Source: an uncultured bacterium
Lineage (GTDB): Bacteria; Muiribacteriota; UBA9980
Direction: 5' to 3'
Assembly (NCBI GenBank): GCA_964551445.1
Contig: CAZKCG010000014.1
Location: 26,765-38,688 of the forward strand
DNA: 11,924 nt
The translations under genes were made by a program, and so were the position numbers. The notes below the pieces were generated by a model, which worked only from the letters and a program-made list of their open reading frames with translations, made no database searches and was not told the origin of the DNA. Positions 484 through 11,635 of the stretch are shown piece after piece (positions within the stretch are counted from its first letter, which is position 1; every line of letters starts with the position of its first letter).

Positions 484-1119
484 TTATTTGTCCACATCTT
501 CTTTTTCGATGCGTTTTATAACCTCGTTGGTAAGTTCGCGGTGTTTTTCATAATGTTGCATATACTTACTGGTATCGCCTTTAATATAATAGCAAAGTCC
601 GAGTTTTTTATGGCCTTCAGCCATTACTTCATCATTTTGTGAATTTCGGTTCATGATATTTCCAAGTTCGACGATTATATCGTCAACTCTGTTTTCCTTC
701 ACAAGCGGTTTCAACGAACCGAATTTTCCGGTCTCATCCTCTAACAAAGAGCTTGCCGAACCTACATTTGCGCTTCCTTTGGCGAAACTGCGCTGCGTCT
801 CTTTCTGTTCGCGGGAGAGTTCGATCATCTTCTGCTTATATTCGTTAGAGGAAACGATCTTGGATTCTTCGAGATATATCTCAAAAGCGCTTTTAAAATA
901 ATCAAGGCTGATTTTAGAAGAGTTTTGAACCGTTTGAACCGCCTTCGTCGCATTTGTTTTAGTGCCCGCGCAGGAACAGGAACAAGATTCGAGAAAAAGA
1001 GCTGAAAAAAGCATTATGAAAAGAAAAGCCAGCCTTAACTGATCTTTTTGAAGCGCCGAAATTAAATTATCGTTATTGATACCATTATTATTTTTCATAT
1101 TAATAGTCCATATTGTCAT
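484..1119 (-). CDS. Putative secreted or lipoprotein-like protein with a C-terminal helical (TPR-like?) region. Last gene of the pseudopilin operon. Start is uncertain (TTG 1122, ATG 1119 or ATG 1098).
   Basis: 212-aa ORF. The N-terminal hydrophobic segment LAFLFIMLFSALFLESCSCSC resembles a signal peptide with a possible atypical lipobox Cys. The start overlaps or abuts the upstream gene's stop (stop TAA 1102-1100, ATG 1098 one nt later), which fits translational coupling. Confidence 0.5.
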   Translation of the reverse strand: MTIWTINMKNNNGINNDNLISALQKDQLRLAFLFIMLFSALFLESCSCSCAGTKTNATKAVQTVQNSSKISLDYFKSAFEIYLEESKIVSSNEYKQKMIELSREQKETQRSFAKGSANVGSASSLLEDETGKFGSLKPLVKENRVDDIIVELGNIMNRNSQNDEVMAEGHKKLGLCYYIKGDTSKYMQHYEKHRELTNEVIKRIEKEDVDK

Positions 1120-1672
1120 CAACCCATGAGAAAAAACCTTTATATCTGGCTGATTGAAATAGATAACGGGGGTAAACTTTAGTTAAAAGCGTAGTGTTGA
1201 CCTTGTCGTACTTCTGGCGTTCGACGATCACTTCTACCTCGGCTTCAATTTTTACCGCGACATATTCCGGCTTAATAAAGATCTTGAGATCTTTCACGTT
1301 TTTAGCGATAACTTCTTTTTTTGATGTGGTTTTATTAGAATAACTTAACTTGTCGCCGTCCAGATAATATTCCACGGATTCGGTATTAGCCGCTCCAAGA
1401 CCTGTATTAGGAAATCCGACCGTAGGCTTCCCGCGGAAATATTTAATGGTCAGCTTCGAATCTTTATATTCGACGGAATGCGCGCCGCGCAGATCCTTGC
1501 TTATTCGCTGAAGCGCCATTCTGGCGTCCTGCTGCTGGTCTATGTTGATATCGTCAGTCATTATACGCGGGACCTGAGTTCCGAAAAGATAATAAACCGT
1601 GGCCATCATTATTATAAGCGCGACGGTCGATATTATCATTTCTATGAGGGTGAATCCTTTTTTATTAATCAT
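1100..1672 (-). CDS. Prepilin-type N-terminal cleavage/methylation domain protein (type IV pilin or T2SS pseudopilin).
   Basis: 190-aa ORF beginning MINKKGFTLIEMIISTVALIIMMATVYYLFG. This is the canonical class III signal (short basic leader, G|FTLIE with Glu+5, then a hydrophobic helix). It overlaps the upstream gene by 8 nt (1665-1672). Confidence 0.8.
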   Translation of the reverse strand: MINKKGFTLIEMIISTVALIIMMATVYYLFGTQVPRIMTDDINIDQQQDARMALQRISKDLRGAHSVEYKDSKLTIKYFRGKPTVGFPNTGLGAANTESVEYYLDGDKLSYSNKTTSKKEVIAKNVKDLKIFIKPEYVAVKIEAEVEVIVERQKYDKVNTTLLTKVYPRYLFQSARYKGFFSWVDDNMDY

Positions 1673-2165
1673 TGGGATTCTCCTTTGAAATATAAGTTAC
1701 AAGCCTTATAGCGCTGTGCGTTATCGGCCGCCTCATATCGTCGAGTTCTTCCCATTTAATATTAACCGCGACCTCTTTTATATTCGGGTTTTTGGCCGGA
1801 AGCTCCTTGCCGTCGCGGACTATTATCTGTTTTTTAAAATATTTATAATTTTCTGGATATGCTATCTTTTCTTTGTCATCCGATATCCATTCGCCCTCGA
1901 ACCCGTCCCATGCCGTCGGAAGCATGGACGAGACCTCGGCGAACTTTTTCGCCTTGACCTCTTCCATCGTTTGAAGCGCCAGATTTAAGGCGGTCAGGGC
2001 ATTCTTCGACTTGATCGTCGCGTCGGTCGTAAATAAAAATATCTTCAAGATCGCTGGCGTCAAAACACTTAAGATCGCCAGAAAAATAAGGACGAATGCA
2101 AGCGTGTTGCCCTTTTCGAACAGGGAAATATTAAATTTTCTGAAATTTTTCTGGCCGTTTCCCAT
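1665..2165 (-). CDS. Bitopic pseudopilin-like or pilus-assembly (GspM/PilO-like) membrane protein. Its class III signal is degenerate and lacks Glu+5.
   Basis: 166-aa ORF. A 19-aa basic N-terminus ends in KG, followed by NTLAFVLIFLAILSVLTPAILKIF (a single TM helix). The ATG at 2165 lies 3 nt after the upstream gene's TAA (2171-2169). AAAGG sits about 10 nt upstream. Confidence 0.5.
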   Translation of the reverse strand: MGNGQKNFRKFNISLFEKGNTLAFVLIFLAILSVLTPAILKIFLFTTDATIKSKNALTALNLALQTMEEVKAKKFAEVSSMLPTAWDGFEGEWISDDKEKIAYPENYKYFKKQIIVRDGKELPAKNPNIKEVAVNIKWEELDDMRRPITHSAIRLVTYISKENPND

Positions 2166-2168
2166 AAA

Positions 2169-3905
2169 TTACTTGCCTTTCTTCTCTTCGAACCATGAAG
2201 AATATATAGGGCTCATGCTGACGACGTATTGTTCATTTTTACGATCATCCAGACGCTTCTGGTAGTTGATGTCCAGATGCGCGTAAAACTTCGCCGGATT
2301 AAGATTTTCAACCGCCAGGTTTCCGAAAATCTTAAAGGAGCTGGTCACGCTGACCCCGCTGTTATTGGTCGTCGTAAAAAATTGAAGGCCGTTAAAGGTG
2401 AAAACGTTAGCGTAAACGTTAAATGTTTGAACTCCCGTGTTGTCGTTCTTTTTATGCCACTTGTACATGAGAGGATTCACCGATTTAGGGTATAGTATAA
2501 GGCTTAAATTCGAAGGGCCTTTATCGGTTTTCGGGTCTTTTTTTAAATTCACGTTGTTGTTTATGCACATCGCGTTATCGGAAAATATGACGCCGCGGCC
2601 TTTATAATTAAATTCCTGCGCCTCCGTTCCGAGCTCGGCCTTGTTGGTGAATAAGATCCCGTTGATAAGGAATGAATCGCCGTTTTCGAATATCTTCATA
2701 TCGTTATATTTAAGCTCGGGCGAAAAATACAGCGCTCTCATTTTATAGTGATTAGCGTCGAAAGAGGCCGTCTTCATAGGAAGATCAGGTTCGAGTTTAA
2801 AAAAACCTCCGGCCGGAGTGTAGGGTTCGACTATCCGTTCAGGTATCGGAAGCAGATTATATGAATAGGTCGGCGAGGTCGAGGGCGGCACGGGAGGGTA
2901 AACATTACAATCTATGGTGTATTTGCCGTAGACCTTTTGAACGAAGCCGTAAAGTTTTTCGGGCAGGCTTATGTTCGAACCGATTCCGGTTAAATTGTGC
3001 TTTCCGAATAATCTTACGCGGCCCTTATGTTCTTTGTCCTTAACGGCGCTTCCATCCGAACCGTCCGATTTTCTTTTGAATTCGCCATAAACATAAGTAT
3101 AGGGGATCGCGGTCGGGACCGGAACAGGCGGAATTGGAGTACACCATTTCAGAGGCAGAGGCAGGGGGCTTGTGGACAGCGGATTCGGAGGCGAGAGCCA
3201 CCCGTAGCGGTCTCCGATGTAAGCTGAAACCGGGTGAGTGCTGTCGCTCGCGATCCTTATGCTGCCTGATTTGTCTGATTGTTTATCGCGGTTCAGACAG
3301 GTTATTATCGGCCCGTCGTTTATCTCGAATTCCTTCATATAGGCGTTCGTGTACAGCGTGAAATCCTGCGCGGGCGGAGTTATGTTGACGACCTTTATAT
3401 CTCGCGTTATCTTAAGGGTCATGTCGACGTCGTAATAACTCATCTGGCATGTGAAAACGAGCGTCCCGGCTTTTTCTTTCTTGTCTGGCGATCCGGGAAA
3501 ACCGACCACGTCGACAAAATCCATGGTAAGCCTTCCGAATTTGGAACCGGGCATCTCGCTTATCAAAAAATCCACGTTCTTTCGGATATCGGGATATTTA
3601 TCGTAAAGATTGACGACTCTTATGGTTGTGCTATTATCGATAAAATCTGTTTTTAATTTAGGATCTTCATTTATTTTAGTGTTCATATATTCCATAGCGA
3701 GATTTAACACGCCCTCCGCAAGATATGAAACCACGTTCTGCCTGTGTATGCGGAAGGTCTGCGTATGTCCTGATGAGCTTCTCGATATCATTGAGTAACC
3801 TAAAACGATCATGAAAAGAACGAAAGGCAGCAGCATCAGGACCACGTTGCCAGCCCGTCTTCCATTTATTCGCATCAAAGCTTTTTTTACGCCGGATATT
3901 ATCAT
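2169..3905 (-). CDS. Large bitopic membrane protein with two proline-rich linkers. Candidate GspK/PilX/PilY1-like minor pseudopilin or tip-associated protein. First gene of the operon.
   Basis: The six-frame ORF runs to 3950, but that start overlaps the predicted -10 element. The first in-frame ATG downstream of the predicted transcription start is at 3905 (AAAGG 8 nt upstream), giving 578 aa. The N-terminus MIISGVKKALMRINGRRAGNVVLMLLPFVLFMIVLGYSMI is a basic stretch followed by one TM helix. The proline-rich segments are SPPNPLSTSPLPLPLKWCTPIPPVPVPTAIP and YPPVPPSTSPTYSYNLLPIP. Confidence 0.5.
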   Translation of the reverse strand: MIISGVKKALMRINGRRAGNVVLMLLPFVLFMIVLGYSMISRSSSGHTQTFRIHRQNVVSYLAEGVLNLAMEYMNTKINEDPKLKTDFIDNSTTIRVVNLYDKYPDIRKNVDFLISEMPGSKFGRLTMDFVDVVGFPGSPDKKEKAGTLVFTCQMSYYDVDMTLKITRDIKVVNITPPAQDFTLYTNAYMKEFEINDGPIITCLNRDKQSDKSGSIRIASDSTHPVSAYIGDRYGWLSPPNPLSTSPLPLPLKWCTPIPPVPVPTAIPYTYVYGEFKRKSDGSDGSAVKDKEHKGRVRLFGKHNLTGIGSNISLPEKLYGFVQKVYGKYTIDCNVYPPVPPSTSPTYSYNLLPIPERIVEPYTPAGGFFKLEPDLPMKTASFDANHYKMRALYFSPELKYNDMKIFENGDSFLINGILFTNKAELGTEAQEFNYKGRGVIFSDNAMCINNNVNLKKDPKTDKGPSNLSLILYPKSVNPLMYKWHKKNDNTGVQTFNVYANVFTFNGLQFFTTTNNSGVSVTSSFKIFGNLAVENLNPAKFYAHLDINYQKRLDDRKNEQYVVSMSPIYSSWFEEKKGK

Positions 3906-3940
3906 AGATAAACCTTTTTCATTTTTTATTACTTCACATA

Positions 3941-3969
3941 ATTTTATCAAAATATTGCAATAATGTCAA
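3941..3969 (-). promoter_or_regulatory. Sigma70-type promoter for the minus-strand pseudopilin operon (TTGACA-17 bp-TGaTAAAAT on the minus strand).
   Basis: Plus-strand tgtcaa at 3964-3969 reads TTGACA on the minus strand. Plus-strand atttta at 3941-3946 reads TAAAAT, with TGa immediately upstream (extended -10). The spacer is 17 bp. The predicted transcription start is near 3934. Confidence 0.55.
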
Positions 3970-4706: not shown

Positions 4707-4735
4707 TTGACATATATAAAAACATATGATATAAT
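4707..4735 (+). promoter_or_regulatory. Consensus sigma70 promoter for tRNA-Leu (TTGACA-17 bp-TGaTATAAT).
   Basis: TTGACA is at 4707-4712, the spacer is 17 bp, and TGATATAAT is at 4727-4735. The predicted transcription start is about 4742, with the tRNA 5' end at 4749. AT-rich sequence lies upstream. Confidence 0.7.
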
Positions 4736-4748
4736 CACAATCGTTATT

Positions 4749-4832
4749 GCCGGAGTGGTGAAATTGGCAGACGCGGTGGACTCAAAATCCACTGAGGGCA
4801 ACCTCGTTCCGGTTCAAGTCCGGACTTCGGCA
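4749..4832 (+). tRNA. tRNA-Leu (anticodon CAA), a class II tRNA with a long variable arm. The 3' CCA is not encoded.
   Basis: The 84-nt sequence is GCCGGAG...CTTCGGCA. The acceptor stem has 7 bp including one G-U pair. The anticodon loop is CTCAAAA in a GTGGA/TCCAC stem. The T-arm is CCGG-TTCAAGT-CCGG, and the variable arm GAGGGCAACCTCG is long, typical of Leu. Confidence 0.93.
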
Positions 4833-4844
4833 TTTCATTAGGAT

Positions 4845-4917: not shown

Positions 4918-5025
4918 AATTTAAAAGAACCTGGACCAACCGGCGTTCTCTGGAAAATTTCCTGATTTTTCCCTGATATTAGAGGACTTTTGAGAATATA
5001 TAGATAAGATTAACCGGGGGTATGT

Positions 5026-6432
5026 ATGAAAGTATGCAGAAATTTCAAAGCTTTAATTTTAATTTCATCGCTTTTCTTCTTCTGTCTTTGCGCTCTTGAT
5101 CTGCCCGTCATGCGCAACAAAGCATTTGCCGAAGAGAAAAAAACGGTTCCCAAAAATGAAACGATAAAAAAAGACAAAGACAAAAAAACTGAAGATAGCT
5201 CAACCGCCAAAAGCGACGGCAACAAGAAAAAAGAAACCGCTTCCGATAAAAAGAAGAGTAAAGATGAGAAAGCGGCCGCCGCTAAAAACAAAGATAAAAA
5301 AGAAACCGAACATGCTGAAAATTCGAAGAAAACAGAAAATAAATCTTCCGAAATGAAAGACAAAGATAAAAAAGAGTCCCGGGCAGCTGAAAATTCGAAG
5401 AAAAAAGACAAGAGCGTGACCGCGAAAAAAAGCTCGAAAAAAACAAAGGACGGCAAAACGGCCGCGGCCGATAAAACTTCAGCAAGTGAAAAATCCGCGA
5501 AGGCGCCCGCAAAAACCGATGAGATAACAATAAATTCGACCACTTTCAAACTCGGGGGACTCACGCTCGAAGAAAGTTCGACCGCCAGAAGCGGCGACAA
5601 GCTGAAAAAAATAAAAGAACTCGCGTCCGAAGTAAAACAAAGTTACGAAACGACCCGGAAGACCAAACCCAAAAAAACCAATAAATATTCGTTAAAACTT
5701 CCGGAAAGCTATCATCAGGTAGATATGCGACTCGCTCAACAGGTAATGGACCGCGTTAACCTTAAATCATTTTCCATGTTCCGCAGGCTATATCAGCCTT
5801 ACGTTAAAACCGGGAAACTCAAAAAAATACCGGAGCCTAAAAACAAGCCCAAAGACGAACTGGACGGACGGATAAAAATGACCGTTTTCATAGTCGCAAG
5901 CTTTATAAACGAGGTCATTGAAAAATACGATTCGGGCAACCTGTCGAAAAGCCACAAAAATTTCGGCGACTGGGTGAGCGAAGGCGCGCATATCCTCGCC
6001 TACGGCGGAACTTATTCAATGAAGATCCCCGTGGAAAAAAGCTCGAAAAAGAAAAAAGAAAAAAGCGGGATAATTTCCGCAAGCGTCGCGAAAAAACTTT
6101 TGAGAGCGCTTATAGAAACGGAATCGTCCGGAACGCAGATGAAAGGCGGAAAAGTTTTCACATCGCTCAATATGTCGACCTATCCGAACGACGGCTCCTA
6201 CGTGATAGGCTTCATGCAGGAATCGGTGAACGACTTCGCTCGCGGCGTGAACCTTTTCGACCCGGAGGTCAATATCAAATACACATGCAAAAAGCTGCAT
6301 AAATACCTGGTCAAATACGGAGGAAATATAGATATGATGCTGCGCGAATATAACGCCGGCGCCGGAAACATGGACTGCGCGCAGGCCCACAGGTATTCCG
6401 GAAAAATAATGAGCAGGATGAATAATTACTAG
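5026..6432 (+). CDS. Secreted lytic transglycosylase (SLT/GH23-like C-terminal domain) with an N-terminal lysine/aspartate/glutamate-rich disordered repeat region.
   Basis: The 468-aa ORF has a GGGGG ribosome-binding site 5 nt upstream of the ATG at 5026. The signal peptide is MKVCRNFKALILISSLFFFCLCALDLPVMRNKAFA|EE. Residues 37-166 are very K/D/E/S-rich. The C-terminus carries the SLT family-1 motifs ALIETESSGT (catalytic E-S), IGFMQ (G-L/F-MQ) and EYNAGAGN (AYNAG). Confidence 0.75.
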   Translation: MKVCRNFKALILISSLFFFCLCALDLPVMRNKAFAEEKKTVPKNETIKKDKDKKTEDSSTAKSDGNKKKETASDKKKSKDEKAAAAKNKDKKETEHAENSKKTENKSSEMKDKDKKESRAAENSKKKDKSVTAKKSSKKTKDGKTAAADKTSASEKSAKAPAKTDEITINSTTFKLGGLTLEESSTARSGDKLKKIKELASEVKQSYETTRKTKPKKTNKYSLKLPESYHQVDMRLAQQVMDRVNLKSFSMFRRLYQPYVKTGKLKKIPEPKNKPKDELDGRIKMTVFIVASFINEVIEKYDSGNLSKSHKNFGDWVSEGAHILAYGGTYSMKIPVEKSSKKKKEKSGIISASVAKKLLRALIETESSGTQMKGGKVFTSLNMSTYPNDGSYVIGFMQESVNDFARGVNLFDPEVNIKYTCKKLHKYLVKYGGNIDMMLREYNAGAGNMDCAQAHRYSGKIMSRMNNY

Positions 6433-6526: not shown

Positions 6527-8965
6527 GTGAACTTATTTATTCGAAAAAACAAAGTATATTCTGTTTTATCCATATTCATTTTTATTTCCCTTTCGTTGTT
6601 CACACGGGGCGGCGGCGCGGCTGAAAAACCTTCGATAAAAGACGTGCTGACGGACACGATAACGCGTCAGGAACAGGGCGCGGATATTTCTCCGGCGCGG
6701 GATCTTCCGCAAACGGGGGGGCTGAGCGTCGATGAACTCGAGGATAAGATCGTCATAGGCTGGCGCGGGCCGAAACTCGGCGAGATACTCGACACCGGAA
6801 TAAAAAAACGCGGCGCGCAGGTGGCCGAATATCACATCTTCAAAAGCAGGAACGCGAAGCTGAACTTCGTCCTTTGTAAAACCGTAAAAGCTAACAAGGA
6901 CGGACATTATAAATACGAGGATTTCGACCTTCAAAATAACTCGACCTATTATTATAAAATAATGATGGCCGACCGCGAGGCCGGGCTTCATGAATATATC
7001 CCTCAATTCAGCGCGGTGACGCGCGATATCAACAGGCCTAAAAGACCGCGCCGCCCCGAAGTTTCAAGCGGGGACGGATTCGTGAAGGTCCTGTGGCAGC
7101 CTTATACCGCGGATGATTTCAGCGAATATCAGATACTTCGCGCGGCGGAGGTCGGGGGCGAGCCTGAGATCATCGCCAGAATAAAACAAAGCGGGATCTG
7201 CCAGCTTGTCGATTCAGAGATCATAAACGGCAAAACCTACCTATATTCGGTCAAAATAGTCGATAAAGCCGGGAACGAAAGCCGCGAGTCCGACGAGGTC
7301 GTTGGAAAACCTCGCGACTCTTCCGCTCCCGCCGCGCCTCAAAATCTGAGATCGACGCCCGGAAATAATTCCGTAACTCTCTCATGGCAGCGGCCGGCCG
7401 ATCGCGACGTGGAATTTCACAGGATCTACATGCACGAAGGCGAGCTTAAGCCTGGCGCTAAAATGAAATGCATCGCTACCATCGCGGCTAACGATTCATT
7501 CCTCAACTCGTTCGAAGTTACGAAACTCAAGAACGGAAAGATCTACTTCTTCGAAGTAACGGCCGTCGATTTTTCCGGCAATGAATCGCCGAGATCGTTC
7601 GAAGTCAAGACCTCGCCGGTAGATTTTACGCCGCCGAAAACTCCGAGTTATATAAAGACCACTTCAATGAACGCGGCCATGCGCATAGAATGGGCGCAGG
7701 TCCCGGATTTCGACAATGATCTGGGCGGTTATAGAATTTACAGGAAATCCACCGCGTTCCCTAAATATATAGCGGTAGCCGAGGTGCGAAGTCCGAAAGC
7801 CTCCGCCGAACAGATGTTCTCGTCTAAAAAGAAAAAGGAGCGCGAAGGGGCCGCCGCGGGTTTTTATCCGACTATTTACGAATATACCGATAACGGGCTT
7901 TATAACGGCATGCCGTATTATTATTATGTGGTCGCCTTCGATAAAAAAGGTAATGAAAGTAAACCCACTGAGATCTCTGACGGGATACCGCGCGATAAAT
8001 CCGCGCCCAAAAAGGTCGAAGGCGCGGCGGCCGTATCTCATCTTAAAAAGATAGAGATCAAATGGAAAAAGAACAAGACCGACCGGGACCTGCTTGGTTA
8101 CTTCATATACAGGCGCGCCGAGGGAGAGGATAAATACGCTCTGATCGCTGAGATCAAAGATCTTGAAAAACCTTCATTCACGGATGAGAATCTCGCCATG
8201 GGCGTTAAGTATCATTACCGCGTGGCGGCATTCGACGAGTCAAGGAACGAATCGGTTTCTTCGGATGAATTTTTCGGCACGGCTCGATTTCCCAACCAGA
8301 TATCTTTCTCACGGGCGTACCTGAAAAACTACCCGCATACTTACTGCTACAGCATCAACCTCAACGGCATGAGCCTTTCGTACACGAAAAGCCAGGACAA
8401 TATAAGCTGGTCTTCATGGTCTGAAACGATAAAACTGCCTTCGGCCCCGCCTAATTTCGGCCGCATGGCGCAGATCTCGGTTCAAAAATGGACGAGCGGG
8501 ATACTCGTTTTCTGTTACAACCCCGAAACGCTCGATCTTTATTTCACGAACACGCCCGACGAGAAAAATTTCGGGACCTGGCAGATGCTTTTTAATAAAA
8601 TTGAGCTTCCGCCTAACTTCGGGACCAACTGCCACATATCTTTCGAAAAGGACGAAAAGACGCTTATGGCGTTTGCCTATAATCCCAAAACCTCTTCGGC
8701 TTATTATTCTTTCAGCCGCGATCTGGAGAGCTTCCTCAGATGGAACCTGTGCGGCCTTAAGGTCGCGCCGCCGCCTGAAGATTCGGACCTTACGAAATAC
8801 TGCATAACCTCGGATGAAAAAGGGTTCTACCTTTTCTCGTTCGACACTGAAACGGCGAAGGTCATGCAAAGCTTCTGCTTCGACAAAAAACACTGGAAAG
8901 CATGGTATAATTTCGCGAAGAATATGAAAAAACCGCCGAATCTCGAAAAGTCAAAAAACAATTAA
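6527..8965 (+). CDS. Secreted 812-aa protein with five fibronectin type III-like domains and a C-terminal Trp-rich tandem-repeat domain of unknown type.
   Basis: The start is GTG at 6527, with AGGGTGGG 6 nt upstream. The signal peptide is MNLFIRKNKVYSVLSIFIFISLSLFTRGGGAA|E. Five FN3 C-terminal strand signatures are present (YYYKI; YLYSVKIVDKAGNESRES; YFFEVTAVDFSGNESPRS; YYYYVVAFDKKGNESKP; YHYRVAAFDESRNESVSS), each preceded by a Trp about 50 residues earlier. Residues 587-812 contain repeats of about 55 aa with PPNFG, YNP and Asp-box-like S-x-D...W motifs. Confidence 0.75.
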   Translation: MNLFIRKNKVYSVLSIFIFISLSLFTRGGGAAEKPSIKDVLTDTITRQEQGADISPARDLPQTGGLSVDELEDKIVIGWRGPKLGEILDTGIKKRGAQVAEYHIFKSRNAKLNFVLCKTVKANKDGHYKYEDFDLQNNSTYYYKIMMADREAGLHEYIPQFSAVTRDINRPKRPRRPEVSSGDGFVKVLWQPYTADDFSEYQILRAAEVGGEPEIIARIKQSGICQLVDSEIINGKTYLYSVKIVDKAGNESRESDEVVGKPRDSSAPAAPQNLRSTPGNNSVTLSWQRPADRDVEFHRIYMHEGELKPGAKMKCIATIAANDSFLNSFEVTKLKNGKIYFFEVTAVDFSGNESPRSFEVKTSPVDFTPPKTPSYIKTTSMNAAMRIEWAQVPDFDNDLGGYRIYRKSTAFPKYIAVAEVRSPKASAEQMFSSKKKKEREGAAAGFYPTIYEYTDNGLYNGMPYYYYVVAFDKKGNESKPTEISDGIPRDKSAPKKVEGAAAVSHLKKIEIKWKKNKTDRDLLGYFIYRRAEGEDKYALIAEIKDLEKPSFTDENLAMGVKYHYRVAAFDESRNESVSSDEFFGTARFPNQISFSRAYLKNYPHTYCYSINLNGMSLSYTKSQDNISWSSWSETIKLPSAPPNFGRMAQISVQKWTSGILVFCYNPETLDLYFTNTPDEKNFGTWQMLFNKIELPPNFGTNCHISFEKDEKTLMAFAYNPKTSSAYYSFSRDLESFLRWNLCGLKVAPPPEDSDLTKYCITSDEKGFYLFSFDTETAKVMQSFCFDKKHWKAWYNFAKNMKKPPNLEKSKNN

Positions 8966-9009: not shown

Positions 9010-10020
9010 GTGGTCATAAAAAAATATATAAAAGAACGCACTAACGAACTGGAAGCCATTTTCAAAAAGTTTGCGGGCATCAGAATGGTCATAGTCGGAG
9101 ACATTATGATCGACGAATACCTCTTCGGAAAATGCTCGCGCATATCGCCGGAGGCCCCCGTACCGGTCGTGGAAGTATCACGGCGCGAGTTCAGGCCGGG
9201 CGGCGCTGCAAACGTGGCCAGAAACGTTCTCGCGCTCGGCGGAACGGTGTCGTTATGCGGCATCATCGGTTCCGACGGCATCGGCAGGCTCGCCTGCGAA
9301 GAATTCGAAAAACTGGGCATAGGCGCGAAAGCCGTTTTTACTGACGAGACGCGGCCGACAACGCTTAAGACCAGGATCATGGCGCATAATCAACAGATCG
9401 CAAGGACCGACATCGAAAAGCGCCATGAAGTATCCGACGCCATCCGCGCAAAGATAATGAAATATTTCAAGGATAATTTAAATAAGTTCGACGGAGTGAT
9501 AATTTCCGATTACGCGAAAGGCCTCGTCAGCAAGAACCTCCTTGACGAGCTTCTGCCGTTTTTGCATAAGAACAAAAAGATAGTGACGGTGGATCCCAAG
9601 GTCGCCAATTTTTACCACTACCGCGGCGTGACCTCGATAACCCCAAACCGTAAAGAACTTTCAGACGTCCTCGGCGTTCCGGTCGAAACCGGCGAACAGC
9701 TTATGGCGGGCGGAAAATCGATATTGCACGACCTTTCACTCGCTTCCCTGCTTGTGACCCTCGGCGAGGAAGGCATGTGCCTCTTTACCGCCGACGGCAA
9801 AACCTTCATGATACCGACAGTAGCGCGGGCGGTCTATGACGTGACCGGCGCGGGCGACACTGTTATAACCTCTTTCACGATGGCTCTTATCGCCGGAGCG
9901 GATTTCGCGACGGCGGCCCTCATATCCAATTTCGCCGCCGGAGAGGTCGTAGGAATGCTCGGAACTTCAACGGTCGGATGCGACCAGGTCTTTCGCGCGA
10001 TCAAAAATTTTAAAAAGTAA
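9010..10020 (+). CDS. hldE: D-glycero-beta-D-manno-heptose-7-phosphate kinase (HldE domain I / RfaE1 homolog, pfkB ribokinase family). Kinase only, with no adenylyltransferase domain.
   Basis: The 336-aa ORF has a GGAGG ribosome-binding site 6 nt upstream of the GTG at 9010. Motifs [42 protein letters not shown] and [10 protein letters not shown] match the N-terminal kinase domain of E. coli HldE ([49 protein letters not shown]). The protein ends about where the E. coli kinase domain ends. Confidence 0.88.
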   Translation: [336 protein letters not shown]

Positions 10021-10057
10021 TTAAACGAGTTTCAGATACCGAAGGGAGAGATGAGAA

Positions 10058-11635
10058 TTGAAGATATTAACGGCCGGACAAATGCAGAAAATAGACCAGG
10101 CGGCGATGAGAAATTATTCGATACCCGAAATCATTCTTATGGAGAACGCTGGCCTTCAGACGACGCTCGCCATTATGGAGACATTCCCCGACATAGACCA
10201 AAAAAGCGTGCTTATCGTTTCAGGCCCGGGAAACAACGGCGGCGACGGCTTCGTCATCGCGCGGCACCTTTCCAACCTTGGTTCTTCAGTGAACGTGGCC
10301 ATAACTCAAAGCGCCGTCAAATATAAGGGCGTTTCAGGCGAAAACCTTGAAATATTAAAAAAAATGAATGTCCCGGTCCTTGAGATCACCACCGAAGGAT
10401 CTATATACGAATTATTGAATATAGCCGCGTTCTCGGACGTCATAGTAGACGCGATCTTCGGCACCGGCCTGTCCAAACACATCGAAGGCCATTATCTCGC
10501 CCTCATAAACGGCCTGAACAGCGTCCCGGCGCCTAAGATATCGGTCGATATCCCTTCAGGCATAGACGGTTCCACCGGCCTCGTCATGGGCGCAGCCATA
10601 AAAGCAATGTGCACGGTCACTTTCGCGGCCCCGAAGATAGGACATGTTTTAGATCCCGGTTCGCACTACATCGGAAAATTTTACATCGCCGATATCAGCA
10701 TACCGAAAGTTCTTTTAAATTCGCCGGATTTCAAGGTAAATCTTACGACCGAGAACTTCGTCAGAACTAAACTTCCCGCGCGGCCCGGATCCTCGAACAA
10801 GTCGACCTTCGGAAAAGCTCTTTTAATAGGCGGTTCAAAGCTTTACAGCGGCGCGCCGAAGATCGCCCGCAACGCGCTTCTGCGTTCGGGAGCCGGCGTA
10901 TCATTCGTAATGGTCCCTGATTCGATATTATCCGAAACACAATCCGATAATACGGACGCCATAATCATAGGCTTAAAATCATCTAAGGACGGTTATATCA
11001 AAGCCTCTCTCGAAAATATCGAATCGGTCCTTGAATTTATCAATATCAATAAGATAACGGCGGTAGGCCTCGGAATGGGCATGACGGATACCGAAGACAC
11101 CGCGGCATTCGTCGGGGAACTGCTTTCTAAGATCGAAGTTCCCGTCTGCCTCGACGCCGACGGCCTGTCAGGATTGAAAAAATATAAAGAAAAGATACTC
11201 GCCAACCGGGGGCTTAAGCTAGTGATAACTCCCCATGCCGGCGAAATGGCGAAACTCATCGGCAGTTCTTCCGAAAGCGTTCTCATGGACCGGCTTAACA
11301 TCAGCCGCGATTTTTCATCGGAAAATAACTGCGTCACGCTTTTAAAAGGGCACCGGACCATAATTTGCGATCAGGAAGGGAAAACCTACATCAACACTTC
11401 CGGAAATCCGGCCATGGCCAAAGGCGGAATGGGCGACGCTCTCACGGGCCTTATAACGGGATTTCTCACGCTCGGAATGAAACCGATGGACGCCGCAGTA
11501 TGCGGATGTTACATTCATGGAAAAGCCGGCGATCTGGCCCTGGCCAAAGTTTTCGAATATTGCATGACAACAAACGATCTTATCGGAAAAATATCGGAAG
11601 CCATGGCCGCGGTCGCGGGGACGACGAAAAGATAG
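10058..11635 (+). CDS. nnr: Bifunctional NAD(P)H-hydrate repair enzyme Nnr (N-terminal NAD(P)H-hydrate epimerase, YjeF_N; C-terminal ADP-dependent (S)-NAD(P)H-hydrate dehydratase).
   Basis: The 525-aa ORF has TTG as its probable start, with AGGGAG 8 nt upstream; an alternative ATG lies at 10082. The YjeF_N signature SGPGNNGGDGFV is present. The C-terminal domain carries the carbohydrate-kinase-like motifs GHRTIICDQEGKTYINTSGNPAMAKGGMGDALTG. Only a 37-bp gap separates it from hldE, so the two are probably co-transcribed. Confidence 0.88.
   Translation: MKILTAGQMQKIDQAAMRNYSIPEIILMENAGLQTTLAIMETFPDIDQKSVLIVSGPGNNGGDGFVIARHLSNLGSSVNVAITQSAVKYKGVSGENLEILKKMNVPVLEITTEGSIYELLNIAAFSDVIVDAIFGTGLSKHIEGHYLALINGLNSVPAPKISVDIPSGIDGSTGLVMGAAIKAMCTVTFAAPKIGHVLDPGSHYIGKFYIADISIPKVLLNSPDFKVNLTTENFVRTKLPARPGSSNKSTFGKALLIGGSKLYSGAPKIARNALLRSGAGVSFVMVPDSILSETQSDNTDAIIIGLKSSKDGYIKASLENIESVLEFININKITAVGLGMGMTDTEDTAAFVGELLSKIEVPVCLDADGLSGLKKYKEKILANRGLKLVITPHAGEMAKLIGSSSESVLMDRLNISRDFSSENNCVTLLKGHRTIICDQEGKTYINTSGNPAMAKGGMGDALTGLITGFLTLGMKPMDAAVCGCYIHGKAGDLALAKVFEYCMTTNDLIGKISEAMAAVAGTTKR

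Follow-up and report, generated by a model that had tools for sequence, protein, structure and literature searches.

A lysine-rich, probably disordered N-terminal tail on a predicted lytic transglycosylase family of uncultured Wallbacteria

We examined an 11,924-nucleotide stretch of DNA from an uncultured bacterium (contig CAZKCG010000014.1, positions 26,765 to 38,688; hereafter the window) and found that the gene at positions 5026 to 6432 encodes a protein in which a long lysine-rich tail separates a predicted signal peptide from the folded part, which ends in an SLT-type lytic transglycosylase domain. The lysine-rich composition of the tail is kept throughout a small family of homologues, while its sequence is not. 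We favor a reading, to which we give about an even chance of being right, in which the tail is a free, cationic, disordered segment that would hold or target a periplasmic transglycosylase on anionic surfaces of the cell envelope.

Architecture of the protein and its family

The 468-aa protein consists of four parts: a signal peptide, the lysine-rich tail, a family-specific region of ~190 aa, and the SLT domain. The gene and these parts are as follows.

5026 to 6432, + strand: open reading frame (ORF) of the SLT-domain protein, 468 aa, which appears from its sequence to be secreted; family confined to Wallbacteria-type metagenome-assembled genomes (MAGs)
5026 to 5130, + strand: signal peptide (residues 1-35) as read from the sequence, with MKVCRNFK, the hydrophobic segment ALILISSLFFFCLCAL, and the predicted cleavage site KAFA/EEKK
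5131 to 5520, + strand: lysine-rich low-complexity tail (residues 36-165), probably disordered, delimited by composition
5521 to 6081, + strand: family-specific conserved region (residues 166-352), delimited by the family alignment, with a TDEIxINSxxFKxGGLTLE hairpin followed by helices
6082 to 6405, + strand: SLT (GH23-type) lytic transglycosylase domain (residues 353-460), PF01464

PF01464 matched residues 353-460 with 30.9 bits (gathering cut-off 21.3, E 2.2e-7); this match and the composition of the tail bear out an initial annotation of the window, which had described a lysine-rich, probably disordered segment in an SLT-domain protein. Within the domain, a catalytic-type Glu366-Ser367 pair is encoded at 6121-6126, GFMQ occupies residues 395-398, and YNAG occupies residues 442-445. 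The residues of these motifs are invariant in 15 of 15 family sequences. When the window protein was aligned with an ordinary SLT protein (33% identity), the ES, GLMQ, and AYNAG motifs of the latter fell on its own motifs, GFMQ being a conservative variant of GLMQ. All three hallmark motifs of family-1 lytic transglycosylases were found; the domain is divergent but motif-complete, and its predicted activity is that of a lytic transglycosylase.

Escherichia coli Slt70 and MltE are family-1 SLT/GH23 lytic transglycosylases. The window protein resembles these enzymes in its C-terminal PF01464 domain, its E-S, G(L/F)MQ, and YNAG motifs, and its predicted export, but the Wallbacteria domain is very divergent and has a longer insert between ES and GFMQ. 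Moreover, the ordinary SLT proteins that we inspected have neither the ~190-aa family-specific region nor the lysine-rich tail. Residues 166-352 had no match in Pfam or NCBIfam, and the SLT domain had none among PDB sequences at E≤1 and none in NCBIfam. A PDB search with the family profile returned a sodium channel and calnexin, which we rejected as low-complexity noise. AlphaFold2 models were of low confidence, with a mean predicted local distance difference test score (pLDDT) of 46 for the full-length protein (15-sequence alignment) and 51 for the core alone (12 sequences); both were helical in the SLT part at these low confidences. A GGGGG run lies 7 nt 5′ of the ATG of the gene.

The family has a narrow distribution. 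A word-indexed search of 5.8e9 proteins returned only 15 relatives (412-498 aa), of which the named ones are from Candidatus Wallbacteria. When 1.84e9 cluster representatives were searched with a hidden Markov model, only 2 clusters (50% identity) matched the whole 300-aa core, and the remaining matches were confined to the SLT-domain part of the profile (E 1e-6 to 1e-3). The family is encoded in 7 of 185,579 species-representative genomes, all of them uncultured Wallbacteria/UBP16-type MAGs. Wallbacteria are reported to be diderm Terrabacteria with OmpM-type outer-membrane tethers (bioRxiv 10.1101/2021.05.31.446380).

A search of the homologues for similar lysine-rich N-terminal extensions, which had been proposed as a check, found such a low-complexity tail directly after the signal sequence in every full-length member. 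In the window protein, residues 37-166 contain 32% K, 13% A, 12% S, 11% E, 10% D, and 9% T; 54% of the residues are charged and the net charge is +16 over 130 aa. With 21% D+E, 1.5% P, and a net charge per residue of ~+0.12, the tail is a lysine-rich polyampholyte, not a polycation, and the earlier description of it as strongly basic goes too far. Across the family, the tails range from 57 to ~175 aa in length, with 29-40% K, 0-3% R, and 10-19% D+E, a net charge per residue of +0.12 to +0.28, and an isoelectric point of about 9.7-10.4. This composition is kept in 14 of 14 full-length homologues.

The tail sequence itself is hardly alignable across the family. Compared with the two closest relatives, the core is 87-89% identical and the tail ~51%, and dN is ~0.33 in the tail versus 0.015-0.034 in the SLT domain (10-20-fold). 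The dN/dS of the tail is roughly 0.2-0.3, a rough value since dS is saturated (>1). That composition is conserved while sequence is not suggests selection for charge. In ~90 kb of Wallbacteria loci, no other gene contains a 60-aa interval with 25% K or more, which makes the tail a feature of this protein and not of the proteome. Judging mainly from its composition and lack of conservation, the tail is probably intrinsically disordered. AlphaFold2 placed no secondary structure in it (pLDDT 26-41) in a model that is poor as a whole, and residues 36-166 had no match in Pfam at E≤10.

A candidate envelope-targeting tail and its alternatives

In the reading that we favor, the lysine-rich, net-positive, disordered segment would form the N-terminus of a Sec-exported SLT-type lytic transglycosylase. 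Cleavage of the signal peptide at the conserved AFA would leave the tail as the free N-terminus of a mature, soluble periplasmic enzyme, and selection would act on its composition (about one-third lysine, virtually no arginine, no hydrophobic residues, positive charge) and not on its sequence or exact length. The tail would make multivalent, salt-sensitive electrostatic contacts with anionic surfaces of the envelope, for example the carboxylates of peptidoglycan, the head groups of phospholipids, or lipopolysaccharide (LPS). Such contacts would keep the enzyme at its substrate or raise its concentration there, and could also ease its threading into the mesh of the sacculus. A disordered tail whose function depends on composition would be expected to retain charge, hydrophilicity, and lysine over arginine while drifting in sequence and length, as these tails do. 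Also in favor of this reading are the diderm lineage with its OmpM tethers, the LPS-heptose kinase in the gene cluster, and the conserved synteny with housekeeping envelope genes (described below).

Other autolysins have basic wall-binding regions, to which we liken the tail. Extracytoplasmic disordered regions guide PBP1 of Bacillus subtilis to its sites within the wall (PMC9732909). The window protein is like PBP1 and RsgI in that a disordered low-complexity segment is attached to an extracytoplasmic peptidoglycan-active protein, the composition of the segment, not its sequence, is kept, and a part in guiding the enzyme within the wall is proposed. However, PBP1 and RsgI are membrane-anchored proteins of a monoderm, and the Wallbacteria tail is likened to their regions by architecture, not by composition. 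In exported Plasmodium proteins, expansion of lysine-rich repeats is reported to yield a localization module based on composition (PMC5207086); as these are proteins of a eukaryotic parasite, with another compartment and target, the likeness is an analogy only. We found no direct precedent in the literature, among lytic transglycosylases or peptidoglycan hydrolases, for a disordered region rich in lysine.

Several points weigh against this reading. The binding of the tail to envelope surfaces is deduced from sequence, and its affinity for polyanions may be weak, given the moderate net charge and the 21% acidic residues. The enrichment in K, D, E, N, S, and T could come partly from mutational expansion of A-rich DNA and not from selection, and the saturation of dS leaves the dN/dS values rough. 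As the AlphaFold2 models are of low confidence throughout, the low pLDDT of the tail is only weak evidence for disorder. Lastly, 11 residues separate the AFA site of the window protein from the end of its hydrophobic core, a rather large distance.

The position of this site bears on an alternative that we consider unlikely, in which an uncleaved signal anchor tethers the protein to the inner membrane and the lysine-rich segment is a flexible stalk from which the catalytic domain reaches peptidoglycan. TolA domain II, TonB, and the LpoB linker span the periplasm. In all members, it is exactly the tail that links the hydrophobic segment to the folded core, and tails of 57 to ~175 aa (here, a charged linker of 130 aa) are compatible with spanning several nanometers. 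In addition, the distance of AFA from the hydrophobic core of the window protein, with R and K between them, is less than ideal for signal peptidase I. However, AFA or another AxA-type motif occurs immediately before the tail in most homologues, despite otherwise divergent signal sequences, and the hydrophobic cores of these sequences (~16-17 residues) have the length of those of signal peptides. There is no lipobox in the N-terminal segment, and the ~3-fold variation in tail length between species is a poor fit to a fixed distance. Signal peptidase I cleavage at AFA fits the conserved motif, and an AxA-type site directly before the tail means that the mature tail probably has a free end. The same site led us to disfavor the suggestion, made in the initial annotation, of a spacer that spans the periplasm.

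It is also improbable, by our estimate, that the tail is neutral filler, that is, A-rich DNA expanded by slippage or duplication and tolerated because a disordered, hydrophilic tail is harmless. The tail-coding sense strand is 51% A and 72% purine, such that codons for K, E, D, N, S, and T arise easily, and the rapid sequence turnover (dN ~0.33), the lineage-specific repeats, and the free variation in length are all expected of filler. Nonetheless, no member has a tail shorter than 57 aa, and all tails retain 29-40% K, a positive charge, and almost no arginine or hydrophobic residues. The dN/dS of the tail is below 1 by a rough estimate, and the other genes in the same loci lack such segments.

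We hold little confidence in a further possibility, that the tail is a selected, length-tunable polycationic targeting module in which gain and loss of repeats set reach or affinity for each species. Such a module might pin the enzyme to the sacculus, through multivalent electrostatics or through L,D-transpeptidases that would link lysine side chains covalently (compare Braun's lipoprotein). Alternatively, a released enzyme might breach its neighbors' LPS, crossing the LPS layer of adjacent diderm cells as a natural counterpart of Artilysins. Artilysins, which are engineered, likewise join an N-terminal polycationic segment to a muralytic domain, but their peptides are ~9 aa, purely cationic, and act from outside on LPS (PMC4161244), whereas the Wallbacteria tail is long and polyampholytic. 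The SLT gene belongs to a housekeeping envelope cluster, and we saw no secretion system or immunity gene nearby; a secreted weapon of the Artilysin type is unlikely.

The tail had also been called histone-H1-like, and a module of this kind would bind DNA, for instance outside the cell or after uptake into the periplasm. A survey of low-complexity regions in prokaryotes found K-rich regions to be statistically associated with proteins that bind DNA or RNA, and S/T-rich regions with carbohydrate-active proteins (PMC6821194); this agrees with the earlier remark that a basic tail is unusual on a peptidoglycan-cleaving enzyme. The tail shares high lysine content, low complexity, repeat-driven evolution, and presumed electrostatic binding with the histone H1 C-terminal domain, the Dps N-terminus, and the lysine repeats of topoisomerase I (PMC6821194, PMC8118282), and pseudopilin-like genes lie upstream in the window. 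In contrast to these nucleic-acid-binding tails, it follows a signal peptide and combines 21% acidic residues with few prolines (1.5%) and a net charge per residue of only ~+0.12; no homology to them, or to Hc1, was detected, nor any Pfam match at E≤10. The protein is predicted to be exported, whereas H1-like proteins are cytoplasmic (nucleoid); the pseudopilin-like neighbors are not conserved next to the gene elsewhere, and its conserved partners are envelope genes. We therefore give DNA binding very little credence. Borrelia NapA was considered as a precedent and rejected, since the lysine-rich part in question is the DNA-binding N-terminus of Dps, which NapA lacks.

In-frame repeats and A7 tracts in the tail-coding DNA

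The region that encodes the tail contains a tandem duplication, a family of short repeats, and A tracts.

5267 to 5410, + strand: diverged tandem duplication of 72 bp (2 x 24 codons: EKAAAAKNKDKKETEHAENSKKTE / NKSSEMKDKDKKESRAAENSKKKD), which contains the 19-mer pair
5170 to 5187, + strand: KDKDKK-coding 18-mer AAAGACAAAGACAAAAAA, with further copies at 5284-5301 and 5356-5373 (repeat family D1, 89-94% identity)
5137 to 5827, + strand: eight A7 tracts, starting at 5137, 5166, 5182, 5425, 5437, 5605, 5671, and 5821, all from K-K codon pairs

Exact copies of the 19-mer GCTGAAAATTCGAAGAAAA occur at 5314-5332 and 5386-5404, 72 bp apart, precisely where the initial annotation had placed them, and are the best-kept piece of the 72-bp duplication. 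Positions 5267-5338 and 5339-5410 are identical at 52 of 72 nucleotides (the best 72-nt self-match at offset 72), making the copies now 72% identical. In 500 codon shuffles of the region, the self-match at offset 72 averaged 42 and reached at most 47, with 0 of 500 attaining 52; the periodicity thus exceeds chance. An exact repeat of at least 19 nt arose in 1.6% of the shuffles (n=500). The degenerate KDKDKK-coding units reported earlier were recovered at 5170, 5284, and 5356. The arrays that Tandem Repeats Finder detected in the window gene have no more than 2-3 copies.

The 72-bp duplication is absent from the two closest relatives (loci L002 and L006), which lack 34 and 47 codons exactly where the window carries it. 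Since the duplication falls where these relatives lack codons, it is recent and specific to the window lineage. All indels among the three genes are multiples of 3. More distant tails carry in-frame arrays of their own: in L011, a 15-bp unit repeated 12 times (743-944) encodes (KSKDS)n, while in L007 (10331-10387), L015 (2860-2951), and L016 (2860-2955), units of 21/24 bp in 2.4-4 copies encode (KKPADKK)n. Repeat copy number in homologous tails varies between related species. The lineage-specific duplication, the multiples-of-3 indels, and the arrays of other lineages together support the proposal that the gene is prone to in-frame repeat expansion and contraction. We suggest that the A-rich, purine-rich coding DNA would undergo occasional in-frame duplication or slippage, in this case one 72-bp duplication, and that the DNA periodicities exist because such tails evolve in this way.

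An assembly artefact had been raised as a possible explanation of the region. Across the whole gene, the window agrees at 100% identity with an independent Logan assembly (L001, 2988 nt), so the region is not an artefact of assembly. A 196-aa antisense ORF (5010-5600, − strand), rich in F, S, and L, crosses the lysine-rich region; it is a reverse-complement shadow and unlikely to be a gene.

As for the A7 tracts, the initial annotation was right that in-frame tracts are present, but they number eight and not five; three had been missed, and those given as 5147, 5448, and 5667 were a few bases off. AAA makes up 84% of the lysine codons in the gene, and the A7 tracts arise because its KK dipeptides, of which there are 22, are written with this preferred codon. 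Synonymous-codon resampling with the gene's own usage predicted 8.9 ± 1.7 tracts of at least 7 A, compared with the 8 observed. The longest A run in the gene is 7, although more than 99% of simulations contained a run of at least 8. The probability of a maximum run of 7 or less was 0.0005 with the gene's own usage, 0.0018 under permutation of lysine codons, and 0.04 with the usage of neighboring genes. Runs above 7 are missing because AAG codons break every run of three or more lysines. The closest relative, L002, has the same cap (gene 1121-2425; P=0.005 by synonymous-codon resampling). We rejected family-wide avoidance of long A runs: distant homologues carry A8-A9, so the cap at A7 is a local feature and not a rule of the family. 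In the window gene and its closest relative, it may reflect local selection against slippage-prone tracts.

These data make it highly doubtful that this is a contingency (phase-variable) gene, in which slippage in the A7 tracts or repeats would switch the enzyme on and off or alter tail length within populations. A +1 or −1 indel in any of the eight A7 tracts would truncate the product to 44-282 aa, before the SLT domain, and repeat arrays do occur in the family. However, the tracts are as many as codon usage predicts, and runs longer than 7, though expected, are absent. In four 90%-identity clusters (7, 3, 2, and 2 full-length members), tails differ by substitutions only, with 0 indels among these 14 near-identical variants; the protein of one relative recurs unchanged in 5 contigs, which come from at least 4 samples, and the two assemblies of the window strain are identical. 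The sole apparently truncated homologue (P0015) was considered as a natural frameshift and rejected, as the apparent truncation is an NN scaffold gap in the A-rich part beside a contig end. Thus, the slipped-strand switching that had been envisaged finds no counterpart in tract number, run length, or strain variants, and comparison of near-identical strains revealed no variants in length or frame, whereas length does vary between species. Changes in tail length through gained or lost repeats do occur, and are seen only between species.

In L019 (positions 1-320), a JGI scaffold of a homologue ends inside the lysine-rich region and an NN gap splits the gene call. Such a break shows a tendency of the low-complexity stretch to interrupt assemblies and to give spurious truncated proteins.

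Conserved neighbors and significance

Downstream of the SLT gene, the window contains two genes that recur beside its homologues.

6527 to 8965, + strand: fn3-repeat protein, 812 aa, secreted (Pfam fn3); conserved downstream neighbor
9010 to 10020, + strand: D-glycero-beta-D-manno-heptose-7-phosphate kinase (RfaE domain I), assigned by TIGR02198 (361 bits, cut-off 345) and synteny

In each of the loci that we examined, the next gene 3′ of the SLT gene encodes an fn3-repeat protein (~815 aa). The two genes are separated by only 8-9 nt in L007, L011, and L019 and are probably co-transcribed, and the fn3-repeat protein may be a functional partner of the transglycosylase. The C-terminal ~230 aa of the fn3-repeat protein contain four ~50-aa repeats with PPNFG- or PPNL-like endings and had no Pfam match. 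The conserved order is SLT gene, fn3-repeat protein, RfaE-domain-I kinase, and, usually, YjeF. In the window, this order ends with a YjeF-type NAD(P)HX repair enzyme, the kinase and YjeF genes together spanning 9010-11635 on the + strand. The heptose kinase points to formation of ADP-heptose, and hence to LPS or glycan synthesis, in this diderm lineage.

Genes upstream of the SLT gene differ between genomes. In the window, four consecutive ORFs of 212, 190, 166, and 593 aa (484-3950, − strand) resemble a minor-pilin/pseudopilin operon; the 190-aa ORF contains a prepilin N-methylation motif (PF07963), and the other three had no family match. We rejected a functional link between these genes and the SLT gene, as the neighborhood is not conserved in other genomes. 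A tRNA-Leu(CAA) gene (4748-4833, + strand) separates a SpoU-type methylase gene from the SLT gene. The promoter in front of the tRNA gene matches the sigma-70 consensus at 12 of 12 positions (4707-4735; TTGACA, 17 nt, TATAAT) and has an extended −10 TG.

Together, our results document a lineage-restricted SLT family that combines a lysine-rich tail with a ~190-aa domain and is always found beside a large fn3 protein and an LPS-heptose kinase. Its architecture is a new variant, in an uncultured phylum, both within SLT transglycosylases and among disordered tails on envelope enzymes. The eye-catching repeats and A tracts have mundane causes, and the gene should not be annotated as histone-like or phase-variable. 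If targeting by charge is correct, it would be a simple, composition-encoded means of placing a peptidoglycan-cleaving enzyme in a poorly known diderm phylum, and the idea that extracytoplasmic disordered regions guide wall enzymes would extend to Gram-negative-type envelopes.

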